A DNA stretch of 35,999 bases from a virus (taxonomy: Duplodnaviria > Heunggongvirae > Uroviricota > Caudoviricetes), in the IMG/VR virus record IMGVR_UViG_2541047899_000011; one strand, written 5' to 3'. Of this stretch, positions 2,298-35,999 are shown one piece after another. Position numbers and translations under genes: made by a program. Within the stretch, counting starts at the first letter, position 1, and each line of letters begins with the position of its first letter. The notes under the pieces were generated by a model that worked only from the letters and a program-made list of their open reading frames with translations, ran no database searches and was not told where the DNA came from.

Positions 2298-3191
2298 ATG
2301 AGTTTAATTACGCAATTAAATGACGTAATGGCCCGTCGCGGCTATACGCAGACCCACGTCGCCCGTGCTATTGGTCGTAGCAGCGCCGTTATCAACCAGT
2401 ATTTACAGGGTAAATATCAGGGCGATATGGCTGATATTGAAGAACGCATTTCTGCCTTTGTGACCCGTGAGCGGGAAAAGGAAAACAGCCGCCGTATTAA
2501 AGCGAAATTTGTTGCCACCGGTATGGCTGCCAAAGGACTGGAAGTGCTGGCCTATGCTCACCTGGAATGTGAAATCTGCGTACTGTATGGCGCGGCAGGT
2601 CTTGGCAAAACAATGATTCTGCGTGAATACGCCGCCAGAAACCGGGATGCGGTCCTGATTGAGGCTGACCCGGGCTATACAGCCAGGACACTGCTTGAGG
2701 AGTTGTGCCGCCAGTTGGGGGTAAAAGTTCGCGGCAATATCCACGAACTGATTGATGCATGTGTGCGAGAACTGCGTGATTCCGGTCGCCTGCTGATGGT
2801 GGACGAGGCTGAACTGCTCCCCTATCGCGCACTGGAGGTTCTGCGCCGTCTACATGACAAAGCGGGTATCGGGATTGTCCTGGCGGGTATGCCACGCCTT
2901 CTGATTAACCTCAAGGGACGTCGCGGTGAGTTCGCCCAGTTATACAGCCGTGTGGCGCTGGCGCTTAACCTGGGCGATACGCTGGCGCAGGAAGATTTTA
3001 ACCAGATAGCCACCGGGCTGATGCCGGAAGCAGCAGAACCGGAAATCAGCGAGGCGCTTTATACACGTTCGCTGGGTAATGCCCGCCGCCTGTTCAAACT
3101 GGCGCGTGGTGTGTACCGGATTTGTGATATCAGCGATGCGCCGGTCAGTGTGCAGGCCATTGATAAATTCGCAGAAATGTTAATTCACTGA
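2298..3191 (+). CDS. Mu B-like AAA+ ATPase, transposition target-DNA activator
   Basis: 297 aa; N-terminal HTH-like region, Walker A GAAGLGKT, Walker B LLMVDEAE; immediately downstream of transposase. Confidence 0.85.
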   Translation: MSLITQLNDVMARRGYTQTHVARAIGRSSAVINQYLQGKYQGDMADIEERISAFVTREREKENSRRIKAKFVATGMAAKGLEVLAYAHLECEICVLYGAAGLGKTMILREYAARNRDAVLIEADPGYTARTLLEELCRQLGVKVRGNIHELIDACVRELRDSGRLLMVDEAELLPYRALEVLRRLHDKAGIGIVLAGMPRLLINLKGRRGEFAQLYSRVALALNLGDTLAQEDFNQIATGLMPEAAEPEISEALYTRSLGNARRLFKLARGVYRICDISDAPVSVQAIDKFAEMLIH

Positions 3192-3205: not shown

Positions 3206-3430
3206 ATGGACAAGCAGACCATTAACGCCGTCCGTTCCCGTGCCCGTGTGGCCATTCACACCACCGGCGGTCGTGTAACGGGACAGCATCACCGTTTACC
3301 TGTGGTTTATGCCTGCCCGCCCGTGGGTGGTCCTGTATGGCCGGTAACGGAAATCATCCAGACATTCAGCGGCCTGCGCCGCGTGGTGAAAACATCCTGT
3401 ATCGACGGCTGCACCGTCGTATGGCAGTAA
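3206..3430 (+). CDS. hypothetical early-region protein
   Basis: ORF with GGAG 9 nt upstream of ATG 3206; an alternative ATG at 3191 overlaps the B stop. Confidence 0.45.
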   Translation: MDKQTINAVRSRARVAIHTTGGRVTGQHHRLPVVYACPPVGGPVWPVTEIIQTFSGLRRVVKTSCIDGCTVVWQ

Positions 3431-3637: not shown

Positions 3638-3842
3638 GTTAGAAGTAATTATCTATACCGATGAAAAAGGCTGTGTATTAACCCAGACCACGGGGAGTTA
3701 TTCGAAGGACGGAGCTTCCGAAAAAGAGTTTCAGATAGCAACAAGATTACATGATGCTATCAAGGAAACGCTTAGAAATGACTATAACGGCGTGAATCTT
3801 TTTTCTGAAAACGTTGCGCCTCGCGCACATAACACAAATTAA
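3627..3842 (+). CDS. hypothetical early-region protein (71 aa)
   Basis: ATG 3627 with AAGGAG 6 nt upstream; the ORF track begins at an upstream TTG (3606). Confidence 0.5.
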   Translation: MAVKLEVIIYTDEKGCVLTQTTGSYSKDGASEKEFQIATRLHDAIKETLRNDYNGVNLFSENVAPRAHNTN

Positions 3843-3871
3843 TCTGTAAATATCACTGAGGTAATTTAATT

Positions 3872-4516
3872 ATGACGACTGAAAATAAAGTTAAGCAATA
3901 CACGAAAACTCAAGCGCCAGAAGGTTACTGGGTGGATGCCCGTGGCGTAATGACACCTGAAAGCCTTATCAAAGATATTGACCGCGACCGCGAGCAGCTG
4001 GTCGGTGAGCTTGTGGAGATGGTGATTGCTGCCTCCGCCTCACTGCGTGAACTGAAACTGCGTGCGTTTGGTGATATTCAGGCATTTATTGACCTGTCGG
4101 CGGAGAAATACGGCGCTGTGAAAGGCGGCAAAAAAGGCAATATCACGCTTTACAGCTTTGACGGACGCTACAAGATTCAGCGCGCTATGCAGGACCGTAT
4201 CGCGTTTGATGAGCGCATCCAGACCGCGAAATCGCTGATTGATGACTGTCTGGCTGACTGGACGGAAGGTGCGCGCCCTGAAATTAAAGCCATCATTAGC
4301 GAGGCATTCAGCACGGACAAGGAAGGCAACATTAACACCGGGCGCGTTCTGGCCCTGCGTCGCCTGGAAATTGAGGACGAACGCTGGAATAACGCTATGA
4401 CGCTGATTGGTGAAGCCGTCCAGGTGATTGGCAGCAAGAGCTATATTCGTGTGTATGAGCGCGTCGGTGATTCTGATGAATACCGCGCAATCCCGCTTGA
4501 TATTGCAGGGGTTTAA
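3872..4516 (+). CDS. conserved Mu-like early protein (DUF3164-like, recalled from memory)
   Basis: 214 aa; YWVDARGVMTPESLIKDIDRDREQLV ... GGKKGNITLYSFDG resembles the DUF3164 family common in Mu-like prophages; not Gam-like by eye. Confidence 0.6.
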   Translation: MTTENKVKQYTKTQAPEGYWVDARGVMTPESLIKDIDRDREQLVGELVEMVIAASASLRELKLRAFGDIQAFIDLSAEKYGAVKGGKKGNITLYSFDGRYKIQRAMQDRIAFDERIQTAKSLIDDCLADWTEGARPEIKAIISEAFSTDKEGNINTGRVLALRRLEIEDERWNNAMTLIGEAVQVIGSKSYIRVYERVGDSDEYRAIPLDIAGV

Positions 4517-8908: not shown

Positions 8909-9376
8909 ATGCAGACCTTCAGTGAAACAGATCTTCGCGATGCGCAGGCACTGCTGCCCGATTCCGTGCAGCAACTGATTAGCGTGATTGGCTTCCCCGC
9001 CCTGACCCGGTTGATTCGTTCTTTTGGTGGCGTGACGTTAAGCGGTAAAACCGGCGTACACGCCGGACGCACCGGCGGTGTCCATGCCCTGTTACATGAT
9101 GTGCTGACCGAAGACGAAATCAACAAACTGATCCGCTTTCTTGGCGGTGCACCGTTTTACATTCCCCGTTGTGATCATGCGTTACGTGCCCTGCGTAACA
9201 CCCGTTTTATGGCTGATTTACAGCAGCATGTAAAAGACGGATGCTCACACCGGCAGGCGCTGGCACTACTCTGTCCCCGTTACGGGATTTCAGACCGGTA
9301 TGCATGGCAACTGATACACCGACGACAAAAACAGACTTCGCTGAAAAGCCCCACCCAGGTGGGGCTTTTTGATTAA
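8909..9376 (+). CDS. mor: Mor/C-family transcriptional activator
   Basis: 155 aa; C-terminal region with GGAPFYIPR and an HTH-like segment typical of Mu Mor/C; follows gemA. Confidence 0.75.
   Translation: MQTFSETDLRDAQALLPDSVQQLISVIGFPALTRLIRSFGGVTLSGKTGVHAGRTGGVHALLHDVLTEDEINKLIRFLGGAPFYIPRCDHALRALRNTRFMADLQQHVKDGCSHRQALALLCPRYGISDRYAWQLIHRRQKQTSLKSPTQVGLFD
9346..9371 (+). terminator. intrinsic terminator-like hairpin overlapping the 3' end of mor
   Basis: Stem GCCCCAC/GTGGGGC (9348-9354 / 9359-9365) then TTTTT (9366-9370); lies inside the last codons of mor. Confidence 0.55.
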
Positions 9377-9402
9377 TGGGCCTCAGAAAAAAGGAGACAC
9401 TT

Positions 9403-9681
9403 ATGACCAACTATACGGCACTTGGCGAGTATACGGCCTACTCAGAGCAGGCCCGGGATGCTGCCGGACGCCGCTTCGCTTATATGAAAAATCTGGCCAG
9501 CCAGCTAAACCGAATGGCCGAACAACCGGATATGGTTGTTCAGGAAGAAGCGTTGCAGTGTGCTATTGCTGACATCATCGCCAGCGAAAACGAGATGCGC
9601 GCAGCGATGGAAAAGGCGAACGCCTCTGCTCCGCTTTGTAATAAACCTCTTATTACGCCGGATTCCCTTTCCCGCTTCTGA
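9403..9681 (+). CDS. hypothetical protein (92 aa)
   Basis: ATG 9403 with AAGGAG 6 nt upstream; no Mor/C-like motif. Confidence 0.45.
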   Translation: MTNYTALGEYTAYSEQARDAAGRRFAYMKNLASQLNRMAEQPDMVVQEEALQCAIADIIASENEMRAAMEKANASAPLCNKPLITPDSLSRF

Positions 9682-9700
9682 TTTATCACCCCGCCGCTGC

Positions 9701-9718
9701 GGGGTGCTGAACTCCCCC
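9701..9718 (+). promoter_or_regulatory. late-leader motif copy 1 (GGGGTGCTGAACTCCCCC), upstream of lysis genes
   Basis: Shares GTGCTGAAC-CCC with the copies at 17862 and 29813; overlaps hairpin 9687-9706. Confidence 0.4.
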
Positions 9719-9863
9719 AGCAGTACCCACCATACCAGACCGTTTACCCTGTCCACTCAGACCACAAGGCACCTTAAGGGATAGCGCCCTGCAAAAGGCT
9801 TTTGTGCCTTTGACAGGGTGTTATTTACGGGCCGTCAGTGGCTCAGATTTACAGGAGAAACTC

Positions 9864-10256
9864 ATGTCTGAACCCTTATCAGGCGGCGGAGCTGTGGCAG
9901 TCACCATCGGTGGTGCCAGTGTGTTTGGCCTTCTCACCAATACCGATTTCGGGGTTGTGGTGGGCGCGTTTGCCGGGGCGCTTTTTGTTGTCACGCAGCA
10001 GAAAGAAATCCCGGTCTGGCGAATGGCTATCCACCTGCTCGTCGCGTTTGTGGTTGGCGTTCTGGGGGCTGGCGTGGCTGCGTCACTGATGCAGTGGCTG
10101 ACCCACTACAACGACAAGCCGCTCGATGCATTGTGTGCGGTCGGTGTCTCTGCTTTATCCATCAAGATACTGACTTTTCTTTATCAACAGGAAATTTCAT
10201 CGCTGTTCAGCCTGTTTTCCAGACTGCGCGGCGGAGGGGGCGGAAATGGAAAGTAG
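9864..10256 (+). CDS. multi-pass membrane protein, holin candidate
   Basis: ATG with AGGAG upstream; 3-4 hydrophobic helices and a charged Gly-rich C-terminus; first gene of the lysis cassette. Confidence 0.5.
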   Translation: MSEPLSGGGAVAVTIGGASVFGLLTNTDFGVVVGAFAGALFVVTQQKEIPVWRMAIHLLVAFVVGVLGAGVAASLMQWLTHYNDKPLDALCAVGVSALSIKILTFLYQQEISSLFSLFSRLRGGGGGNGK

Positions 10257-10542
10257 CCTTGCCGGTATTGTGAACGTCTGGCTGTGTCTCGCCATTGTGC
10301 TGGGGTTGTTTATGTATCGCCGCCACGGCGCAGCGCATAAACCGATGATTACCTGGCTGGCGTACTGGCTGATGCTCGGTTACATCATCATCCCGTTCCG
10401 CTGGCTGTCCGGTACATACACGCACTCCAGCTGGCTGGTTGTGGCGCTGAATCTGGTTTTCTGTGCGCTTATCGTGTGGGCGCACGGGAATTTGTCAAAA
10501 ATCCTTTCGTTACTGAGGCATCCACATGAAATCAAAAGATAA
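10246..10542 (+). CDS. three-helix membrane protein, holin/antiholin candidate
   Basis: 98 aa with three hydrophobic segments; directly upstream of and overlapping the endolysin gene. Confidence 0.5.
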   Translation: MESSLAGIVNVWLCLAIVLGLFMYRRHGAAHKPMITWLAYWLMLGYIIIPFRWLSGTYTHSSWLVVALNLVFCALIVWAHGNLSKILSLLRHPHEIKR

Positions 10543-11071
10543 AATTTTTGATGAAGTCCTGGGCAAAGAAGGCGGTTACGTCAATCACCCGGATGATAAG
10601 GGCGGCCCGACCAAATGGGGCATTACGGAAAAAGTCGCCCGCGCCCACGGATACCGTGGCGATATGCGTGAGTTAACCCGCGAACAGGCGCTGGATATCC
10701 TTGAAGCCGATTACTGGTATGGCCCGCGATTTGACCAGGTCGCCGCATTATCCCCTGATATTGCCGCAGAGCTGTGTGATACCGGTGTGAATATGGGGCC
10801 AACCGTGGCGTCCAGAATGCTTCAGCGCTGGCTGAACGTTTTCAACCTGCGCGGCAGGCTGTACCCGGATATGGATACAGACGGACGCATCGGACCTCGC
10901 ACCATCAGTGCATTGCGCGCCTTCCTGAATAATCGCGGTCAGGACGGTGAGCGGGTGATGCTGACGGCCCTGAACTGCACGCAGGGTGACCGCTATCTGG
11001 AACTGGCAGAGAAACGCGAGGCTAACGAATCGTTTGTTTATGGCTGGCTGAAGGAGCGCGTGGCGGTATGA
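10526..11071 (+). CDS. endolysin, glycoside hydrolase 108-type with peptidoglycan-binding domain
   Basis: 181 aa; N-terminal EGGYVNHPDDKGGPTKWGIT motif characteristic of GH108 lysozymes; no N-terminal TM/SAR segment. Confidence 0.85.
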   Translation: MKSKDKIFDEVLGKEGGYVNHPDDKGGPTKWGITEKVARAHGYRGDMRELTREQALDILEADYWYGPRFDQVAALSPDIAAELCDTGVNMGPTVASRMLQRWLNVFNLRGRLYPDMDTDGRIGPRTISALRAFLNNRGQDGERVMLTALNCTQGDRYLELAEKREANESFVYGWLKERVAV

Positions 11072-11250
11072 CGCGTCAGCACTGGACCCACAGAACGCCA
11101 CGTAAAGCCGCGCGCTGTGTTCTGGCCCTGTTTCTGATGATGTTGCTTCCGGTGGGATGCACAGACATTAACAGAGCGGGCCAGCTGTTTGACGCGGCGG
11201 CACAGGTCTGCCGGATTATTGACGGCATCCGGCAGTGTTCGCAGAACTGA
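11068..11250 (+). CDS. small lipoprotein, o-spanin (Rz1-like) candidate
   Basis: 60 aa; hydrophobic stretch ending LPVGC (lipobox-like), short Cys-containing mature part; ATGA overlap with the endolysin stop. Confidence 0.5.
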   Translation: MTRQHWTHRTPRKAARCVLALFLMMLLPVGCTDINRAGQLFDAAAQVCRIIDGIRQCSQN

Positions 11251-11270
11251 TTTTTTGAAGGTCTGACACA

Positions 11271-11477
11271 GTGAGCATTATCAGATTTACAGAATGCGCA
11301 GGCTCAGGGAGCACCAGCGCTGTCATGGTAGTCGCTGAACGCATCACCCATTTTTACCGTCAGTGTGGTGCATATGGTGGCACGATCATTGAGCTGGATA
11401 CCGGGAAAAACGTGTATGTTCTTGAAAATCCCGACGAAGTTAAATGCCTGATTGAACAGGCTCAGAAGGACACTTAA
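11271..11477 (+). CDS. hypothetical protein (68 aa)
   Basis: GTG start ORF between lysis and packaging genes. Confidence 0.4.
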   Translation: MSIIRFTECAGSGSTSAVMVVAERITHFYRQCGAYGGTIIELDTGKNVYVLENPDEVKCLIEQAQKDT

Positions 11478-11977
11478 TGGCGTGGTCACAGGATATCAGG
11501 GACAAAGTCCGTAACGGGTACATCTTTGACCAGCTTCCGCTGGATATCGTCGCCATGAAGTACGCCGTGCCGCACGACACCGCGCGGCGCTGGAAAACGC
11601 AGGCGATGAAAAACGGCGACGACTGGGACAAGCTGCGTGCCGCTCACGCGCTCGCCGGTGACGGGCTGGAAAGTGTCGCCCGCACCGTGCTTATCAGTCT
11701 GGTGGTGAAGTGTCAGACGACGCTTGAACGGCTGAACCAGAACCCGGACATCCCGCCGCAGGAGTCCGTCGAACTGCTGGCGAGTCTGTCTGACAGTCTC
11801 AGTAAGGCGGTGGCCAGCAGTAAAAAAATCCTGCCGGAAACCGACCGGCTCGCCACAGCACTGGAAGTGGTGCAGCGGCTCGGCGCGTTCATCAAGGAGC
11901 GTCACCCGGCACAGTATGCCGCGTTCCTTGAGGTGCTCGAAGGCTTCGCTAAAGAGCTTGAGGATAATTTCAGTTAA
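11477..11977 (+). CDS. DUF1804-like packaging protein (Mu gp27-like, putative small terminase)
   Basis: 166 aa; MAWSQDIRDKVRNGYIFDQLPL N-terminus is typical of the family preceding TerL in Mu-like phages. Confidence 0.7.
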   Translation: MAWSQDIRDKVRNGYIFDQLPLDIVAMKYAVPHDTARRWKTQAMKNGDDWDKLRAAHALAGDGLESVARTVLISLVVKCQTTLERLNQNPDIPPQESVELLASLSDSLSKAVASSKKILPETDRLATALEVVQRLGAFIKERHPAQYAAFLEVLEGFAKELEDNFS

Positions 11978-11983
11978 CCACAG

Positions 11984-12003
11984 CGGCCCGGTTTTCCGGG
12001 CCG
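11984..12003 (+). promoter_or_regulatory. GC-rich stem-loop between the DUF1804 gene and the methyltransferase
   Basis: CGGCCCGG tttt CCGGGCCG; no following T-tract. Confidence 0.4.
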
Positions 12004-12023
12004 TCTGATATTCGGGATTTGTA

Positions 12024-12764
12024 ATGCAAAAACAGATTATTGGTAACGCAACGTTGTATTGCGGTGATGTTCTTGATGTGCTGCCGGCGTTATCTGAACG
12101 TTTTGATGCCGTCATTACCGACCCGCCTTACAGCAGTGGTGGCACACACAAATCAGACCGCAGCATGGCCCCTTCGGACAAGTATGTCGGTCACACTCAG
12201 TATGCCGAGTTCACCGGCGATAACCGCGACCAGCGCAGCTGGGCGTTCTGGTGTTCCATGTGGATATCTCATGCATTGCACAGGCTGAATCCCGGCGGTT
12301 ATTTCATGGTGTTCAGTGACTGGCGACAACTACCGGCGCTTACCGATGCATTTCAGGCCGGTGGTGTGCTGTGGCGCGGTCTGGTTGTCTGGGATAAAAC
12401 GCAGGCTTCCCGTGCGCCACACACCGGCTATTTCCGGCATCAGGCCGAGTATGTGGTCTGGGGCAGCAACGGAAAACTCGACAAATGCCCGCACGGTGGC
12501 CCGTTCCCGGGTGTGATTACGCAGCGTGTCGTCCCGTCCGAAAAACTGCACATGACCGCAAAGCCGGTTCAGCTGATGGCCGAGCTGGTTAAACCGCTGG
12601 CACCGGATGCGCACGTTCTCGATCCGTTTATGGGAAGCGGGACAACCGCGCTTCCGGTTCTTGCCCGTGGCGGACGATTTACCGGCATTGAAATGACTAA
12701 CCAGTATTTTGATATCGCCTGCGCACGTCTCGAAAAAGCGCAGGCAGAAGCAGCGCAGGTGTGA
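12024..12764 (+). CDS. orphan DNA amino-methyltransferase (beta-class, N6-adenine or N4-cytosine)
   Basis: 246 aa; motif IV DPPY near the N-terminus (VITDPPYS) and motif I DPFMGSGTT near the C-terminus; no adjacent nuclease gene. Confidence 0.85.
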   Translation: MQKQIIGNATLYCGDVLDVLPALSERFDAVITDPPYSSGGTHKSDRSMAPSDKYVGHTQYAEFTGDNRDQRSWAFWCSMWISHALHRLNPGGYFMVFSDWRQLPALTDAFQAGGVLWRGLVVWDKTQASRAPHTGYFRHQAEYVVWGSNGKLDKCPHGGPFPGVITQRVVPSEKLHMTAKPVQLMAELVKPLAPDAHVLDPFMGSGTTALPVLARGGRFTGIEMTNQYFDIACARLEKAQAEAAQV

Positions 12765-12765
12765 C

Positions 12766-14406
12766 GTGGCAAAACGTAAACTTTCCATTAAAGAGTTTCA
12801 GAGAAGCTTACAGGAGTACATCGCCAACCTCCGCCAGACCATTGAGGCTGAATGTCTGGGGTTCGATGTTAACCCGCAGGCCACACAGGCCCGCCGGGCG
12901 GCAGTCTGCGACCCGGTGACGGGCTACGATTATTTTGTCGAAAACTATTTCCCGCACTACGTCCGCAACCCGGCAAAAAGCGAGCTGCATAAATACCTGT
13001 TCAGCCGTCTGCCACAGGTTGTGGCAAGCCCGGACCCGGAGAACGACGCCATCGCCGCCCCCCGTGGTGAAGCAAAATCCACGCTGGTGACTCAGTTGTT
13101 TACCCTGTGGACCATTATCCGGGCCATTAAACATTACCCGGTCATCATTATGGACAGTATCGACCAGGCTTATCCGATGCTGGAAGCCATCAAGGCTGAA
13201 CTGGAATTTAACCCCCGTTTAAAAAACGATTTCCCGGAAGTGTGCGGACAGGGGCGCGTCTGGCGTATGGGGACCATCGTCACGGCCAACAATATCAAGG
13301 TGACCGTTGCCGGTAGTGGTAAAAAACTGCGTGGTCTGCGCCACGGTCCGTACCGTCCTGACCTGGTCATCCTCGACGACATCGAGAACGACGAGATGGT
13401 GCGTAACCCGGAGCAGCGCGACAAGCTGCATGACTGGCTCACCAAAACCGTGATGCCGCTGGGCGAGGCTGGCGGTAAAACCGATATTATTTATATCGGG
13501 ACCATCCTGCATTACGACTCCGTACTGTCACGCACGCTGAATAACCCGATGTGGAAAACGGCCCGCTTTAAGGCTGTCATTCAGTGGCCTGCCAATATGA
13601 AGCTGTGGGACGAGTGGGAAGAACTCATCCGCAACAAACAGCCGGAAGCAGCAGAGGCACTTTACCGACAGAACGAAGCCGACATGCTCGCCGGGTCGGT
13701 GGTGTCATGGGCGGCGCGTCCCCTGCTGGCACTGATGAAAATCCGTGTCCGTGACGGTCATGACACCTTTGATTCTGAATACCAGAACGACCCGGTCAGC
13801 GGTGAAGATGCGCTGTTTGCTGGCTGCATTAAGTTCTGGGTTAACCGTCTTGATGAATGGGTGTTTTATGGTGCTGTTGACCCCAGTCTCGGGAAGAAAA
13901 ACAAAAACCGCGACCCGTCGGCCATTCTCGTGGGGGGCTTTAACCGCTTTACCGGCATTCTGGATGTGGTTGAAGCCGATATCCGCCGACGTCTGCCAAA
14001 CAAACTTATCGAAGACGTGATTAAGTATCAGCGGGAATACCACTGTCTGTGCTGGTCGTTTGAGTCCGTCCAGTTTCAGGAGTTTCTGCGTACCGTGCTG
14101 GTTGAGCGTTCGGCGGCGCTGGGCGTGCCGGTTCCGGCGCTGCCGGTCATCCCGCTGGAGGATAAAGCGCTGCGTATTGAGTCTCTTCAGCCGCATATGG
14201 CCAACGGCCTGATCCGCATCAGTCCGGCACATCAGACGCTGATTGACCAGCTACGCCACTACCCCAAAGCCGACCACGATGATGGCCCGGACTGTCTGCA
14301 CATGCTGTGGACGCTGGCGGTATCGCGCAGCGCAAAATTTCAGATTCACACCCCACGCAGCACCGGGCGTGACCGTGGCGGGCGTTTTGGTTCAGGAGGA
14401 TGGTAA
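12766..14406 (+). CDS. terminase large subunit (Mu gp28-like)
   Basis: About 546 aa from GTG 12766 (the ORF track extends to a TTG at 12709 that overlaps the methyltransferase); Walker-like AAPRGEAKST; position before portal. Confidence 0.85.
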   Translation: MAKRKLSIKEFQRSLQEYIANLRQTIEAECLGFDVNPQATQARRAAVCDPVTGYDYFVENYFPHYVRNPAKSELHKYLFSRLPQVVASPDPENDAIAAPRGEAKSTLVTQLFTLWTIIRAIKHYPVIIMDSIDQAYPMLEAIKAELEFNPRLKNDFPEVCGQGRVWRMGTIVTANNIKVTVAGSGKKLRGLRHGPYRPDLVILDDIENDEMVRNPEQRDKLHDWLTKTVMPLGEAGGKTDIIYIGTILHYDSVLSRTLNNPMWKTARFKAVIQWPANMKLWDEWEELIRNKQPEAAEALYRQNEADMLAGSVVSWAARPLLALMKIRVRDGHDTFDSEYQNDPVSGEDALFAGCIKFWVNRLDEWVFYGAVDPSLGKKNKNRDPSAILVGGFNRFTGILDVVEADIRRRLPNKLIEDVIKYQREYHCLCWSFESVQFQEFLRTVLVERSAALGVPVPALPVIPLEDKALRIESLQPHMANGLIRISPAHQTLIDQLRHYPKADHDDGPDCLHMLWTLAVSRSAKFQIHTPRSTGRDRGGRFGSGGW

Positions 14407-14409
14407 TTA

Positions 14410-16005
14410 ATGGCACAGCTTGTTGATATTTACGGACGCCCGCTGAAACGCGAGGCACTCAAAACCACGCAGACGGTCAGAGTGGCGGAACGGCTGCGCA
14501 TTTATCCCGACCACCCGTCCCGTGGTCTGAACATCAGAAAACTGCCGCGCATTCTGGAAGCTGCCGAACGCGGCTATCTTCCGGCGCAGGCGATGCTGTT
14601 TGCGGATATGGAAGAACGTGATGGCCATCTGTTCGCCGAGATGGAAAAGCGCAAAAAAGCGTTGCTGACGCTGGACTGGTCGGTGGAGCCGCCCCGCAAT
14701 GCCTCGAAGGCAGAAAAGGAGCTGGCCGCCGCCGTGGATGAATGGCTGCACGGTATCCCGGACATGGAGGACATCATCCTCAACGGGATGAGCAGTGTCG
14801 GTTACGGCTTCAGCTGTCAGGAAATCAACTGGGCGTTCGTGGATAAAACGTGGTTACCGGATGCGGTGACGCTGCGCCCGCATAACTGGTTTATTACCCT
14901 GCCGGAACACAATGACGAACTCCGGCTGGATGACGGCGGTCGCGGGGAAGACGGTAAGGACGGTTCCGCGCTGTGGCCGTTCGGCTGGCTGGTTCATCGT
15001 TATAACGCCCGGTCGGGATTTCTGGGTTCATCTGGCCTGTTCCGCGTACTGGTCTGGCCGTATCTGTTCAAAAACTTTGCGCTGCGTGATATGGCGGAGT
15101 TTCTGGAGATTTACGGCCTTCCGGCGCGCATTGCTTACTATGCACAGGGCACCAGTGACGAGGACCGGGACAACATTCTCGAAGCCCTGGTCAATCTGGG
15201 CCATGAAGCGGTGGCAGCCCTGCCGCAGGGTAACGAGATTGAGTTCAAGGAGGCCGCATCCGGCGGGCCGGAGGCGTTCATGTCGATGGTGGAATGGGCG
15301 GAGCGCACCACCTCAAAAGTGATTCTGGGCAGTACGCTGACCAGCCAGGCTGACGGTAAAACCTCCACCAACGCGCTGGGTAATGTGCATAACGAGGTCC
15401 GGCACGACATTCTGGCCGCCGATGCGCGCCAGCTGTCCGGCATGTTCAGCAGCCTGATACAGATGATGGCCAGCCTGAACGGCTGGCAGGATATCCCGCC
15501 ACGCCGTCTGCCGCGACTGGTGTTTGATGTGCAGCAGGAAGCCGACATTAAGGGCGTGGCGGAAGCCGTCAGCGTGCTGGTCAACAATGTGGGAATGAAG
15601 GATATCCCGGTGTCGTGGGTACGCAAAAAAACCGGTATCCCCACCCCGAAAGACGGCGAAGAGGTACTGGTGCCGGTGGCACAGCGTCTCCCTGTGCAGG
15701 CGGGCCTCAGCCAGCTGCGTGAGCGGCTGAATGTTGTTGCACTCAGTCAGCAGGACAACGGGGAGGACGACCCGGCACAGCGCGCCATCGACCGGGCAGA
15801 GCTTCCGGCAGAGGCCATCGCGCAGGGGATGAACGAACTGGTGGCCCCACTGGTGCAGGCCATACAGGAAGGCCGGGATGCAGACGAGGCCATGAACGTA
15901 CTGGCGGAAGCCTGGCCGGAGCTGCCGGATGACACGCTGCGGCAGTTGCTGACGCAGGCATTCTTTGTGGCGGATATCTGGGGGCGACTGAATGCCGACA
16001 GCTGA
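14410..16005 (+). CDS. portal protein (Mu gp29-like, DUF935)
   Basis: 531 aa; size, position and MAQLVDIYGRP...RIYPDHPSRGL N-terminus typical of Mu-like portal. Confidence 0.85.
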   Translation: MAQLVDIYGRPLKREALKTTQTVRVAERLRIYPDHPSRGLNIRKLPRILEAAERGYLPAQAMLFADMEERDGHLFAEMEKRKKALLTLDWSVEPPRNASKAEKELAAAVDEWLHGIPDMEDIILNGMSSVGYGFSCQEINWAFVDKTWLPDAVTLRPHNWFITLPEHNDELRLDDGGRGEDGKDGSALWPFGWLVHRYNARSGFLGSSGLFRVLVWPYLFKNFALRDMAEFLEIYGLPARIAYYAQGTSDEDRDNILEALVNLGHEAVAALPQGNEIEFKEAASGGPEAFMSMVEWAERTTSKVILGSTLTSQADGKTSTNALGNVHNEVRHDILAADARQLSGMFSSLIQMMASLNGWQDIPPRRLPRLVFDVQQEADIKGVAEAVSVLVNNVGMKDIPVSWVRKKTGIPTPKDGEEVLVPVAQRLPVQAGLSQLRERLNVVALSQQDNGEDDPAQRAIDRAELPAEAIAQGMNELVAPLVQAIQEGRDADEAMNVLAEAWPELPDDTLRQLLTQAFFVADIWGRLNADS

Positions 16006-31298: not shown

Positions 31299-31871
31299 AT
31301 GAATATGGTCGATTTATTTCGCGCCATGCTGCCGCCGGTCAGTTATGACCTGAACGGGAAATATATTTCCGCGGAGCTGACAGCCGAGGCTAACGTCATG
31401 GAGGCCGTGAAGGCCTCAGCAGCGCGCGTTCTGGCACAAATCACCCCGTTGCAGGCATCGATGACGCTGTCCGACTGGGAGCGCGTGTACGGTGTTGTCC
31501 CCCGTGAAGGGGCAACCCAACAGGAGCGGCGGCAGAACATCCTGGTAAAAATGGCGGCAACGGGCGGGCTGTCCATTCCCTATTTTAAAAATCTGGCCGC
31601 AAGCCTGGGATACACCATAACGATAACCGAACCACGAGCCTTTCGCACCGGGGTAAATCGTTGCGGTGACCGTCTGTTTATCCCTGAAATGCGCTGGGTA
31701 TGGCAGGTCAATGTTATTGGTGCAAAAACGCCGGTATACCGTTTCAGAACGGGCGCATCTGCAACAGGTGAGCCGCTGACGGCCTTTGGTGAATCCATTT
31801 TAGAAAATACCTTTAAAGACCTTAAACCGGCTTTTACAGACTGTTATTTCACGTATGAGGATAAGCAGTAA
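31299..31871 (+). CDS. tail protein (Mu gp48-like, DUF2313)
   Basis: 190 aa between the baseplate J and fibre genes. Confidence 0.7.
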
Positions 31872-32905
31872 TGCAGAATTTAATGCCTCCGGTGAATACG
31901 CCGGATCAATTGTTTCACGATGGTGACCCCACTCAGGGCATTGAGGGCACTATTGTTTATGCTGAACACATGAATAATCAGCAGGGAGCCATTCGTGACC
32001 TGCAACAGGAACTTATTAATTTGCTCCGTGCGGCTGATATATCACCGGACCCGAAGAAACAAAATCAACTGGTTGATGCTATATCGCAATATGTCGGGAA
32101 AAAAGTTCCTGACGCATCATTAACGAAGAAGGGCATCGTTCAGCTCAGTAGCGCAACAGACAGTGATTCAGAAACGGAAGCAGCCACACCAAAGGCAGTA
32201 AAATCACTGGCGGAAAAAATAACAGAATTGCAGGGAGTGGCTTTACCGGTAGGTACCCCAATACCGTGGCCGTCTGATTCAGTGCCACCCGGCTATGCCT
32301 TAATGCAGGGGCAGAGCTTTGATAAAGGCTCTTACCCTAAACTTGCAGCTGTCTACCCATCCGGGATTATCCCGGATATGCGGGGCTGGACAATCAAGGG
32401 TAAGCCTGCCAGTGGTCGTGCTGTATTGTCTCAGGAGCAGGACGGCATTAAATCACACGCCCACAGTGCCAGTGCATCCAGTACGGATTTGGGGACGAAA
32501 ACCACGTCGTCGTTTGATTATGGTACTAAGTCTTCAAATGCCACTGGTGACCATAACCACAACCGAGGCACTATGGAAATTACCGGTACTCTCGGTTACT
32601 TCAGAAGTGATAGCGGTAATTTCTATACAGCAAGTGGAGCATTTACACTGGGTGGCTCTGCGGCAGCCCATGGATTTACGGGTTCTAATTTTACTTATGG
32701 TGTTCCTGTAAACTTTAACGCTTCCAGAACCTGGTCTGGTGTCACAAACACTACAGGTAACCATGCGCACGCCGTTCCAATTGGTGCACATGCACACTCC
32801 GTTGCTATTGGTCCACACGGACACACCATCACCGTTAACGCTGCGGGCAATACGGAAAACACCGTCAAAAACATCGCATTTAACTATATTGTGAGGCTTG
32901 CATAA
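31871..32905 (+). CDS. tail fibre protein with tail-collar domain (Mu S / P2 H-like)
   Basis: 344 aa; conserved fibre box [24 protein letters not shown]; collar-like [30 protein letters not shown]; His-rich C-terminus. Confidence 0.85.
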
Positions 32906-33480
32906 TGACTTTTAAAATGAGCGATAAAGCACGGACCATTCGTGTATTTAATTTTCTTGAAGATACAAAAGAATTTATCGGCAGTAGTGACGCTTATATA
33001 CCGCCTCATACCGGATTACCCGCAAACTGTACGGATATTGTACCGCCGGAAATCCCCGAAGGTTTTACAGCAATGTTTGATACTGCTGACAATTCATGGC
33101 GTCTGGTTGAAGACCATCGGGGGGAAACGGTTTATTCAACAGAAACCGGAAATGCAGTCCCGATATCTGAACTGGGGGAACTTCCTGAAAATGTCACATT
33201 TATTGCACCAGACGGAGAATACCAGCGCTGGGATGGCAGTCAGTGGGTGACGGATGAAGAGGCGAAGCGTGATGCGCTGATTAATCAGGCGGCAGAAAAG
33301 AAAACCAGCCTGCTGAAACAGACTGGAGAACAAATCGCAATCTTACAGGATGCTGTTGATTTTGGTGAAGCAACACCAGAGGAACAGGAGCAACTGACAG
33401 CCCTCAGAAAATTACGAATAAAGTTAAATCGTATTCAACCGGAAAATGCACCAGATATCGACTGGTCAGACTTTGAATAA
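32905..33480 (+). CDS. tail fibre assembly protein (Tfa-like)
   Basis: 191 aa; YIPPHTGLPANCTDIVPPEIPEGF and C-terminal APDIDWSDFE closely resemble the lambda Tfa / Mu U family. Confidence 0.85.
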   Translation: MTFKMSDKARTIRVFNFLEDTKEFIGSSDAYIPPHTGLPANCTDIVPPEIPEGFTAMFDTADNSWRLVEDHRGETVYSTETGNAVPISELGELPENVTFIAPDGEYQRWDGSQWVTDEEAKRDALINQAAEKKTSLLKQTGEQIAILQDAVDFGEATPEEQEQLTALRKLRIKLNRIQPENAPDIDWSDFE

Positions 33481-33488
33481 ATTCCACA

Positions 33489-33509
33489 GCCGCCAGCAGG
33501 CGGCTTTTT
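33489..33509 (+). terminator. intrinsic terminator between the first Tfa and the Stf-like gene
   Basis: GCCGCC agca GGCGGC followed by TTTTT. Confidence 0.65.
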
Positions 33510-33525
33510 ATCATTCAGAGGCTCT

Positions 33526-35406
33526 ATGTCTGTATTAATTTCAGGGGCGCTGATTAATGGCGCTGGCGTTCCGATGGCGGAATGCAAAATTTATTTAGAT
33601 GCACTGGTTAATACCAGTGAAGTGGTCACAGAATCATTTGCGGTTATTGAAACCGATGTAGCGGGACAGTATGCCTTTGAAGCACCAAAAGGCAAATACA
33701 CCGTACACATCAAGCAAAAGAACGGCCCTAAGTGCTGCGTGGGTGACATTTCGGTTTACGACGATTCAAAGCCCGGCACGCTGAACGACTTTCTGACTGC
33801 CCTTGATGAAAGCGATTTAAAGCCAGATGTAGTGAAACGCTTTGAGGAACTGGCGCAACAGGCACAGCAGAGCGCGGAAGCGGCAGCGGAAAGCGAGCAG
33901 GCATCAGACACTGCAAGGAGTGAAGCCATTAATGCAGCCAAAAATGCCCGTCTCCATCGGAATGCTGCATCTTCAGCGGCGACCAGTGCTGAGCAATCGG
34001 CAAATGTTGCACTGGGCCGCGAAAATAACGCTGCCGAATATGCCCGACAGGCTAAAGCCAGTCAGGATGCGAGCGCAGGCAATGCGCAGGAAGCGAAACA
34101 GCACAGGGACGAGGCGCAACGGATAGTTGATGACCTGAAGGGAAGCAATGCTTCCACAACAGAAAAAGGTCTGGTGCAACTCTGTAGTGATACAGACAAC
34201 GACAGCGAAGAACTGGCTGCCACACCAAAGGCTGTCAAAGCCGTCATGGACGAGACGAAAACAAAAGCGCCGCTGGACAGCCCGGCATTCACCGGCACGC
34301 CCACCACACCAACCCCACCGGACGATGCAGCCGGTCTGGAAACAGCGAACGCGGCATTTGTCCGCAAACTGCTCGCTGCGCTGGTTGGCTCGTCACCGGA
34401 AGCCCTGGACACGCTGAACGAACTGGCAGCGGCGCTGGGCCATGATCCGAACTTTGCGACAACGGTCACTAAAGCACTGGCAGGTAAACAGCCGCTTAAT
34501 GACGTGTTAACGGCGGTCAGCCAGATAACACCGGAAGAAAACACACTGCCTTATTTCAGTGCAGAGGGCCGGATTTTACTGGCGCAGCTGTCAGAAAAAG
34601 CCCGCGCATTACTGGCACTGGACACGCCTGAAGCCATGCGCACGGAGCTTGAACTGAAAGCGGCTGCGACGATGGAACCCCAGACCGATATCCGTGACCG
34701 CACACCCGGCAGGCTGGCGCTACCGGGCGCTTTTGGCTTTGGTAAGGCATTCAGTAACACAGAAGCCCTGGCATTTAACGGTCAGGCCGATTTTGCTGAA
34801 TGGCTGAAAGAGGCCACCCCGGGGCGTTATGCGGTCAGTATTGCGGACTCTTCCACACTACTGGCGGGCACCACGAAATTTAACGGCATCATTGATGTGA
34901 TGTGGTCCCCCTTTGATAACGACGAATCAGATGCAATACGCAAATTCAAAACGTTGCTGTGTTTTAACCAGTATTACGAAGGTGAGCACAGTATTCATCG
35001 CCTGACTTACCGCTGGAGTGGAAACAACTGGAATGCAACAGTAAGCCCCATTATTTACGACGGCGATTCGCTGGCGTTCCTGCTGTCCCGGACGGCGGGC
35101 AACGGCCCGTCCTCATATTACAAATATCCGGCAGTTGGCTCTCTTATTCTCGCTGTCTATCAGGGAACAGCGGCAGGAGATAAGGAAATAAAAATTGGCC
35201 TTGGGGATGTAGTGGCGGGGTCGCGACTTGGTCCTGTGGCTATCGACTGTGCAATTAATAATTCCGGGACATATGTTTCCACACCTTCAGTAAAGGCGGG
35301 TGGTGCTGGGGCATTCAGTTTTCCTGGTCGTTATCAGGCCCTGTCAGGTTATCGTGCAACGTATGGCGACAGAGGCTTTATCTGTTTGTTCGTGCGCATT
35401 GAGTAA
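33526..35406 (+). CDS. side tail fibre protein (lambda Stf-like)
   Basis: 626 aa; N-terminus ISGALINGAGVPMAECKIYL...VYDDSKPGTLNDFL matches the lambda Stf N-terminal domain; internal fibre box [24 protein letters not shown]. Confidence 0.8.
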   Translation: MSVLISGALINGAGVPMAECKIYLDALVNTSEVVTESFAVIETDVAGQYAFEAPKGKYTVHIKQKNGPKCCVGDISVYDDSKPGTLNDFLTALDESDLKPDVVKRFEELAQQAQQSAEAAAESEQASDTARSEAINAAKNARLHRNAASSAATSAEQSANVALGRENNAAEYARQAKASQDASAGNAQEAKQHRDEAQRIVDDLKGSNASTTEKGLVQLCSDTDNDSEELAATPKAVKAVMDETKTKAPLDSPAFTGTPTTPTPPDDAAGLETANAAFVRKLLAALVGSSPEALDTLNELAAALGHDPNFATTVTKALAGKQPLNDVLTAVSQITPEENTLPYFSAEGRILLAQLSEKARALLALDTPEAMRTELELKAAATMEPQTDIRDRTPGRLALPGAFGFGKAFSNTEALAFNGQADFAEWLKEATPGRYAVSIADSSTLLAGTTKFNGIIDVMWSPFDNDESDAIRKFKTLLCFNQYYEGEHSIHRLTYRWSGNNWNATVSPIIYDGDSLAFLLSRTAGNGPSSYYKYPAVGSLILAVYQGTAAGDKEIKIGLGDVVAGSRLGPVAIDCAINNSGTYVSTPSVKAGGAGAFSFPGRYQALSGYRATYGDRGFICLFVRIE

Positions 35407-35420
35407 CAAGGAGATAGAAC

Positions 35421-35999
35421 ATGAAAATCAGAGCGGTAAAGGGCATCAGAAACGCCCATTATCTCGAAAATGGTGCGGTTGACTGCGAGGTGTTATTTGA
35501 AGGTGAAACGGAATTCGTCCCGTATACCGCCATGCAGGACGATAGCGCCCCGACAGGCCAGCACATCTGGGAGGAGCTGCAAAGCGGCAAATGGGGTGAA
35601 ATCGCCCCGTTCACCGTCACGCCTGAACTTATCGCAGCGGCAAAAGATGCCAGAAAGCGGGAAATCGAGGCATGGCGCACAGAACAGGAAGCGAAGCCGT
35701 TCACGTTCGAATGGAACGGCCACATCTGGAACGCTGGCCCCGACTCACTGGCTCGCCTTTATCCGGTGGTGATGGCATCAAAATCCGATACGGCGCGTGA
35801 CGTGATGACGTGGGGTGACGCCGATAATCAACAAGTGAAGATGTCGATGTCAGAGCTCGAAGGGCTGGCTACAGCAATGGCGCAGGCACAGGTTGATCGC
35901 AACGACGAGATTTATCAACGTCAGCGGGAGATGAAAGAGAGGTTGAGCAACCTGGATGATTTGCGCTCAATCAGAGCGATGACGATTAGCAGCAGTTAG
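35421..35999 (+). CDS. putative tail fibre assembly/chaperone protein
   Basis: 192 aa directly after the Stf-like gene; stop codon is the last triplet of the window; family assignment by position only. Confidence 0.55.
   Translation: MKIRAVKGIRNAHYLENGAVDCEVLFEGETEFVPYTAMQDDSAPTGQHIWEELQSGKWGEIAPFTVTPELIAAAKDARKREIEAWRTEQEAKPFTFEWNGHIWNAGPDSLARLYPVVMASKSDTARDVMTWGDADNQQVKMSMSELEGLATAMAQAQVDRNDEIYQRQREMKERLSNLDDLRSIRAMTISSS

Follow-up and report, generated by a model that had tools for sequence, protein, structure and literature searches.

A Mu-like Escherichia coli prophage that makes up the whole stretch of DNA analyzed here (35,999 nt, hereafter the window) carries an intact orphan beta-class DNA amino-methyltransferase gene, which lies in a cassette at the junction between a DUF1804 gene and the gene for the large terminase subunit, TerL. 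We regard late-expressed anti-restriction self-methylation of the phage DNA by this enzyme as the best reading of its role, and as probably the right one.

The methyltransferase coding sequence occupies 12024..12764 on the plus strand, starts with ATG, and specifies 246 amino acids. Motif IV (DPPY; 12120-12131, residues 33-36) precedes motif I (FMGSGTT; 12627-12647, residues 202-208), which is the order characteristic of the beta class. The protein matched Pfam PF01555 N6_N4_Mtase with an E value of 2.4e-24 and a score of 86.9 bits against a gathering cut-off of 26.7, PHROG family phrog_67 'DNA methyltransferase' at 2.6e-54, and, over its full length, the PADLOC MTase_II model for Type II methyltransferases at 5.4e-65. 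An AlphaFold2 model had a mean pLDDT of 85.2 and a pTM of 0.85, and its best Foldseek matches in the PDB were CcrM, M1.HpyAVI, and M.BceJIV (E about 1e-15; TM 0.68-0.75; 20-24% identity), in agreement with a phmmer search of PDB sequences (M1.HpyAVI, 3e-15). The ORF, the motifs, PF01555, and the fold therefore all agree with the first-pass annotation, which had described a 246-aa beta-class amino-methyltransferase with DPPY before FMGSGTT; the PGAP label in a 98% identical prophage (L002) is 'DNA-methyltransferase'.

In an alignment of about 42 homologues (56-80% identity), TDPPYSSG and DPFMGS were invariant in every sequence, showing that the catalytic and SAM-binding motifs are not degenerate, and the N-terminus MQKxxIGNATLYCGD was conserved across the alignment, which supports the ATG at 12024 as the start codon. 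Compared with orthologues in Intestinirhabdus, Buttiauxella, and Serratia, the methyltransferase gene had dN/dS values of 0.08-0.11, which are to be read qualitatively because synonymous sites are near saturation; the neighboring DUF1804 gene gave equal values. By these sequence comparisons, the gene is real, intact, and kept by selection, and it would encode a functional, SAM-dependent enzyme.

DPPY is typical of adenine methyltransferases, and N4-cytosine enzymes usually have SPPY/F. Given this motif and the fact that the closest relatives are adenine enzymes, the target base is probably N6-adenine. An N4-cytosine methyltransferase, with otherwise equal anti-restriction logic, is unlikely: PF01555 spans N6-adenine and N4-cytosine enzymes, and PvuII and the rotifer N4-cytosine methyltransferase (N4CMT) were also among the fold matches, but motif IV is DPPY and the best matches by both sequence and fold are adenine enzymes. 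Sequence specificity cannot be transferred from the solved relatives, because they share just 20-24% identity with the window protein and differ from it in the recognition region. Literature searches found neither a target motif nor a characterization for this protein or close homologues, and nothing on the target of its BPP-1 homologue, Bpm.

The surroundings of the gene are those of a Mu-like element. The left part of the window holds a transposase gene (237-2279), followed at the MuB position by an ORF (2298-3191) that is annotated as 'AAA family ATPase' in L002; GemA, Mor, a GH108 endolysin, and a Mu-type portal are also encoded, and tail-fiber genes extend to the right edge. From the holins through the head genes, all genes lie on one strand with intergenic gaps of 46 nt or less, and we took two long minus-strand ORFs beneath the methyltransferase gene (11486..12115 and 12330..12788) to be non-coding. 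The left flank of the junction is the DUF1804 gene (11477..11977, plus strand, 166 aa), whose product matched Pfam PF08822 (E 5.7e-53) and phrog_756 'DNA binding protein' (5.9e-68) and is a putative DNA-binding or small-terminase-like protein. The right flank is the TerL gene (12766..14406, plus strand, GTG start, 546 aa), whose product matched phrog_38 (3.5e-143) and TIGR01630. With PF08822 upstream and phrog_38 downstream, the location originally assigned to the methyltransferase, between DUF1804 and TerL, is secure. The accompanying statement that these two genes are adjacent in canonical Mu holds as a positional analogy and fails in its particulars: Mu gp27 belongs to PF11985, Mu has no DUF1804 gene, and Mu gp28 had no BLASTP similarity to the window TerL. 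Mu gp27 and gp28 are separated by 7 nt. The likeness at the junction is only positional, namely a small-terminase-like gene abutting TerL. A megablast search of phage records with the junction returned no match, and the element is known as a prophage only.

The methyltransferase gene ends immediately before TerL begins. Its TGA stop codon (12762-12764) is followed by a 1-nt spacer and then by the TerL GTG at 12766, and we therefore replace the overlap of stop and terminase start given in the first-pass annotation with this 1-nt gap. The GTG agrees with the PGAP TerL start in L002, the TerL N-terminus (VAKRK or VARRK) is conserved across genera, and the same layout, consisting of a stop codon, 1-2 nt, and GTG, recurs in Serratia, Intestinirhabdus, and Buttiauxella. 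A candidate TerL start at TTG 12709, which would give a 56-nt overlap with the methyltransferase gene, was rejected in favor of the conserved GTG. The junction segment CAGGTGTGAcGTG (12756..12768, plus strand), which is identical in two prophages without the methyltransferase (empty alleles L036 and L037), holds a Shine-Dalgarno-like AGGTG for TerL inside the last methyltransferase codons, and the methyltransferase gene takes its final two sense codons and its TGA stop from this same backbone segment. The spacing fits translational coupling of the methyltransferase to TerL.

A presence/absence cassette of about 743 nt (12013..12755, plus strand) was delimited by aligning the window to L036, L037, and a near-empty Trabulsiella allele (L020). 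The common left flank stops at ...CCGGGCCGTCTGATATT (12012) and the common right flank starts at CAGGTGTGACGTG (12756), with an uncertainty of about 10 nt in these boundaries because 'ATTTGTA' is present in both alleles. The cassette contains the ribosome-binding region of the methyltransferase and its ORF minus the last three codons, and the empty E. coli alleles, in which DUF1804 adjoins TerL, have 7 nt, TGTATAC, in its place; the TerL ribosome-binding region, which is present in the empty alleles, belongs to the backbone. The prophage junction was present, at 95-99% identity, in 55 of the 5,426 complete E. coli genomes searched. It was occupied in 35 of these and empty in 20, the latter matching end to end, and the flanks of occupied and empty alleles were about 98% identical. 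One strain, STEC316, has one prophage of each kind. Otherwise identical elements thus occur with and without the segment, as expected of an accessory cassette, and because 20 of the 55 E. coli copies manage without the gene, any benefit that it confers must be conditional.

The same junction varies in other species. A TerL scan of a single genome for each species, followed by tblastn with the window proteins, yielded 22 related Mu-like prophages. The methyltransferase was at the junction in two (Intestinirhabdus alba and a Buttiauxella MAG), DUF1804 directly abutted TerL in 11, six had small inserts of some 150-420 nt that are unrelated to it, and one had no DUF1804 match; the near-empty Trabulsiella allele used to delimit the cassette also came from this set. 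A Serratia prophage has a 76% identical methyltransferase in the same arrangement as the window. Between genera, the methyltransferases are 76-80% identical and the DUF1804 proteins 75-78% identical, and this roughly equal divergence suggests that the methyltransferase gene has occupied the site for a long time and has now and then been lost or exchanged between alleles. These results bear out the first-pass proposal that the gene was inserted at the DUF1804-TerL junction, both through the 20 precise empty sites in E. coli and through direct abutment in 11 of the 22 relatives, and they answer its question of whether related Mu-like prophages carry a gene there, as those of Intestinirhabdus, Buttiauxella, and Serratia do in addition to 35 of the 55 E. 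coli copies. We conclude that, in Mu-like prophages, the DUF1804-TerL junction is a variable slot in which small accessory genes recur.

RNA folding predicted a GC-rich hairpin, GCGGCCCGG-UUUU-CCGGGCCGU (11983..12004, plus strand), between DUF1804 and the gene that follows. The hairpin has a 9-bp stem and a UUUU loop, and the 91-nt fold had a z score of -2.9. A terminator scan did not call the hairpin because no T-run follows it, and an Rfam search of 11000-13500 returned no RNA family for it. The hairpin is retained at six loci across five genera, both where the methyltransferase gene is present and where it is absent, and two of its nine pairs had compensatory changes. The GC-rich stem-loop reported to precede the methyltransferase gene therefore exists, but it is part of the backbone and not of the insert, as it is also present in the empty-site alleles of prophages that lack the methyltransferase. 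We also considered and rejected a Com-type translational switch, as the methyltransferase start is not sequestered by the hairpin and the window contains no Com-like ORF.

Apart from TerL, no nuclease is encoded near the methyltransferase gene. The PGAP annotation of the 98% identical prophage contains no restriction gene, Mom, Com, or second methyltransferase, and no restriction gene was present in five other homologue contexts. PADLOC reported methyltransferase models only, with no match for either of the two upstream proteins included in the scan. The paired endonuclease that defines a Type II restriction-modification system is thus missing, and the original description of the methyltransferase as lacking a nuclease partner stands for the window and for the homologue contexts examined. 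The last gene in the window encodes a DUF4376 protein, and the STEC316 prophage terminates about 120 nt past its DUF4376 gene, where host agaE follows. DUF4376 closes both the window and the STEC316 prophage, and therefore there is no com-mom operon at the right end of this lineage.

A consensus-only scan of 9000-15000, which weak or activator-dependent promoters might escape, detected no sigma-70-like promoter sites. With no detectable promoter of its own, the methyltransferase gene would rely solely on the late lysis-packaging operon for its transcription. The gene also differs from a phage 'moron' in having neither a sigma-70-like promoter by this consensus scan nor a terminator of its own, the one nearby hairpin being the upstream backbone element. 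A 93% identical allele is present in the EPEC reference strain E2348/69, for which SMRT and nanopore sequencing of overnight LB cultures showed methylation of GATC, two bipartite Type I motifs, and CCWGG and of no other motif (PMC8495745). As no extra Type II motif is present, the gene appears to be silent in this lysogen, although activity would be masked if the enzyme targets a motif that is already methylated, such as GATC. Silence in the lysogen is typical of prophage methyltransferases, which are thought to protect phage DNA (PMC5778455, PMC3299994, PMC4659465); the E2348/69 result matches reports on M.EcoGI/II, Hin1523, and M.EcoMIV/V.

These observations speak against an epigenetic regulator, a role that the first-pass annotation had held possible and that would require an enzyme expressed in the lysogen to alter host or prophage gene expression in the manner of Dam or CcrM. 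Orphan methyltransferases can be regulators (PMC7544214), and two regulatory orphans, CcrM and M.BceJIV, are among the best fold matches. However, these matches are at about 20% identity and are uninformative with respect to biological role, the gene is part of the late lysis-packaging operon and no sigma-70-like promoter precedes it, and the E2348/69 lysogen has no additional methylated motif. We consider regulation of this kind quite improbable, disfavored by both the promoterless late-operon position and the methylome.

The apparent silence in E2348/69, where no methylation is attributable to the gene, is also what would be expected of an inactive or decaying hitch-hiker without current function, as is the presence/absence polymorphism. 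Such a passenger would not be expected to show the strong purifying selection (dN/dS about 0.1), the invariance of the catalytic motifs in about 42 homologues, or the conservation of a full-length ORF at the same site in four genera that we observe for this gene, and we assign this explanation the slightest of chances.

The homologue family is large, with more than 7,500 matches that come mainly from Enterobacterales and Betaproteobacteria, and the exact protein is public on 91 contigs as 'site-specific DNA-methyltransferase'. Homologues occupy several positions in other phages. In a Salmonella Mu-like prophage, a 62% identical homologue lies between the holin and lysozyme genes, upstream of DUF1804; in an E. 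coli lambdoid prophage, a 59% identical homologue separates the lysis genes from HNH-TerS-TerL; in Burkholderia P2-like phages, 44% identical homologues lie among the tail genes on the opposite strand; and in the P2-like Escherichia phage Chuche, a 54% identical homologue lies directly behind a gene for a Com zinc-ribbon protein (PF10122, 1.1e-11). Com is the translational activator of the Mu anti-restriction gene mom (PMC3299994). The association with Com and the repeated placement of homologues in late operons point to a function in lytic growth.

In phage P1, adenine methylation is required for cleavage at pac, and a role linked to packaging, in which methylation of the phage DNA at or near pac, for example, would be needed for terminase or regulate it, deserves mention because the gene is immediately upstream of TerL at a distance suited to coupling and because homologues adjoin terminase genes in the lambdoid prophage. 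Packaging is also one of the functions listed for the Dam homologues of phages (PMC5005818). Packaging cannot depend on the methyltransferase, however, because the 20 near-identical E. coli prophages without the gene keep the same DUF1804 and TerL. Most of the related Mu-like prophages likewise lack the gene and yet keep DUF1804 and TerL, and other homologues reside among tail genes or behind com. A packaging-linked role is accordingly very improbable.

Self-methylation for restriction evasion, as the first-pass annotation had suggested, is a plausible function, given the position in the operon, the absence of com-mom, the Com-linked homologue, and precedent in the literature. According to this model, transcription of the methyltransferase gene would be confined to that of the late lysis-packaging operon, and its translation would immediately precede that of TerL. 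Phage DNA replicated in the lytic cycle would be methylated by the enzyme shortly before headful packaging, and virion DNA would reach the next host already shielded from those restriction enzymes that are blocked by the methylation. In a lineage without com-mom, the methyltransferase would fill the anti-restriction role of Mom. We infer the late expression, adenine as the modified base, the anti-restriction benefit, and the coupling to TerL.

A more specific version of anti-restriction self-methylation holds that the enzyme has very relaxed or no sequence specificity, as do M.EcoGII, Hia5, and M.EcoGIX, and would serve as a general Mom-like device whose toxicity is contained only by placement in the late operon. 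We consider this version possible but unlikely. The central region of the homologues is unusually conserved, with hosts that range from Enterobacterales to Burkholderiales. Containment would come from the lack of a promoter and, in some phages, from control by Com, and in this lineage translation of TerL would be coupled to that of the methyltransferase.

The feature is an ordinary phage orphan methyltransferase for which RefSeq already has an annotation. Orphan methyltransferases carried by phages are well known as a means of anti-restriction, and the significance of this one is mostly a matter of annotation. What our analysis adds are precise cassette boundaries, the 35:20 polymorphism, and the recognition of DUF1804-TerL as a variable slot. 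The polymorphism supplies natural near-isogenic phage pairs in which an anti-restriction benefit could be tested, and, if relaxed specificity proves true, the 246-aa protein might serve as a compact tool enzyme.

Among characterized proteins, the solved beta-class enzymes M1.HpyAVI (5HEK/5HFJ), CcrM (6PBD), and M.BceJIV (8URK) share the fold and motif order of the window protein, but the central target-recognition region is not conserved between them and it. The small beta-class enzymes M.EcoGIX and M.EcoMVIII (NCBIfam PRK13699) align with it over the full length, at 28% identity and an E value of 8e-26 for M.EcoMVIII of pEC958; its score against PRK13699 was 75.6 bits, below the cut-off of 244. 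M.EcoGIX and M.EcoMVIII serve a mobile element in anti-restriction (PMC7736820), and their location in a plasmid leading region, single-strand specificity, and relaxed SAY specificity are features of their own. One paper lists a chromosomal M.EcoGIX homologue in a strain with a Mu-like prophage, and we considered whether the window gene might be M.EcoGIX; we rejected this identification, as M.EcoGIX is a plasmid enzyme and the identity is 28%.

Among functionally studied sequences, these plasmid enzymes and two groups of non-specific adenine methyltransferases from prophages come nearest to the window protein. M.EcoGII and M.EcoGI, from lambdoid prophages of E. coli, are beta-class enzymes like the window protein, and they are prophage-borne and unexpressed in lysogens (PMC5778455, PMC7544214). 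They are 349-352 aa long compared to 246 aa, and membership of the window protein in the M.EcoGII family was rejected, as a BLASTP alignment with the 352-aa homologue of phage 1720a-02 covered only motif regions (34% identity over 56 aa); the relationship to M.EcoGII seems to be at the level of class only. Hia5, Hin1523, and Nma1821 are orphan non-specific m6A enzymes of Mu-like prophages without mom; they are silent in lysogens, and an anti-restriction function has been proposed for them (PMC3299994). The Hia5 family is related to Dam, with DPPY near residue 194, and occupies the mom position behind a com gene (PMC3299994). On this published description, the window protein does not belong to the Hia5 family, as its DPPY is at residues 33-36 and its gene lies in the packaging module with no com.

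The role proposed here for the window gene is shared with Mu Mom, namely late and tightly restricted adenine modification of phage DNA for anti-restriction, but the two proteins are unrelated. Mom is an enzyme of the acyltransferase superfamily and makes acetamido-adenine (PMC3299994). The mom gene is at the right end of Mu, whereas the window gene is in the packaging module and is unaccompanied by a Com gene. By family (phrog_67 and PF01555), the window protein belongs with the orphan Type II methyltransferases of phages, including Bpm of BPP-1 and the methylase of Chuche, which are 53-54% identical to it, and the methylases of Burkholderia P2-like phages, which are 44% identical. Like the window gene, these phage orphans have no nuclease partner and are accessory genes in late regions. 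The window gene differs from the others in its insertion point at the DUF1804-TerL junction, which is specific to one Mu-like lineage of the Enterobacterales, where it resides in a cassette with no promoter or terminator of its own.

In other Mu-like prophages, the content of the slot between the DUF1804 gene and TerL varies, with inserts at L008 3582-4011, L012 ~3790-3986, L010 3743-3988, and positions ~3850-4000 of L013, L024, and L017. Junction inserts encode a Cys-rich ORF of ~140 aa in Morganella, a small Cys-rich ORF in Rubrivivax, an 81-aa ORF in Neisseria, and small hydrophobic ORFs in Glaesserella, Actinobacillus, and Psychrobacter; the methyltransferase is unrelated to any junction ORF of these genera. 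Salmonella enterica Mu-like prophages (L029-L031, 3807-8753) encode a 62% identical methyltransferase flanked by a holin on one side and a lysozyme on the other, and carry a different insert at DUF1804|TerL, of ~1.2 kb and containing an opposite-strand 159-aa ORF. Occupied and empty junctions also occur within a single E. coli genome, STEC316 (NZ_CP041431.1), where one of two related Mu-like prophages contains the methyltransferase cassette (2038174-2039974) and the other lacks it (empty junction at ~624683).

The methyltransferase of E2348/69 (L038 2596-3336) is 93% identical to that of the window (12024-12764). Sixteen of its 17 substitutions fall within residues 63-107, with the remaining protein otherwise identical, and this cluster looks like an intragenic recombination patch. 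One Escherichia albertii 200-kb 'plasmid' record also carries the prophage methyltransferase gene, at 92% identity. Among plasmids more broadly, a methylase of ~227 aa in the leading region was present in at least 5,000 records of a plasmid collection, mainly conjugative enterobacterial plasmids (for example, pEC958, L041 8148-8831); it aligns with the prophage methyltransferase over its full length at ~28% identity.

In five genera, the DUF1804 stop codon is followed by a GC-rich hairpin with the core GGCCCGG / CCGGGCC and a variable loop, which lies ahead of the next gene and is conserved both where this gene encodes the methyltransferase and where it encodes TerL (window 11983-12004; L003 ~3226-3245; L004 ~3232-3252; L020, from Trabulsiella, ~3958-3977; L032; and L036, the OkiPb01706 empty-site allele, ~2084-2105). 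Compensatory changes were observed in 2 of 9 pairs, and the hairpin had no match in Rfam. The hairpin is not a canonical terminator; it could act in attenuation or in mRNA stability.

The endolysin is an M15 metallopeptidase in OkiPb01706 (L036 778-1155) versus GH108 in the window (10526-11071), in E. coli prophages that are otherwise near-identical. This difference shows that modules are swapped within the same late operon. At the right end, the window contains two tandem sets of tail-fibre and assembly/accessory genes, all in one orientation, and it lacks an invertase. The closest match to this end is the tail-fibre end of the STEC316 empty-junction prophage (97.8% over 2.9 kb). The fibre region of the GPEC349-628 prophage (L002 40186-41801), which is otherwise 98% identical, differs from that of the window: its fibre-assembly genes are inverted, and it includes a gene of 768 nt with the annotation 'integrase'.

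The prophage terminates directly after the DUF4376 gene, and its right end lacks com-mom, the Mu anti-restriction operon (window 31871-35999; L027 2930-6467; L002 40186-41801). The packaging module of the window (11477-14406) also differs from that of phage Mu (L040 3317-5501), with DUF1804 in place of Mu gp27 (PF11985) and no BLASTP similarity between the window TerL and Mu gp28. The latter still carries the RefSeq label 'putative portal protein'. Unlike the packaging module, the portal of the window is Mu-type (PF06074).
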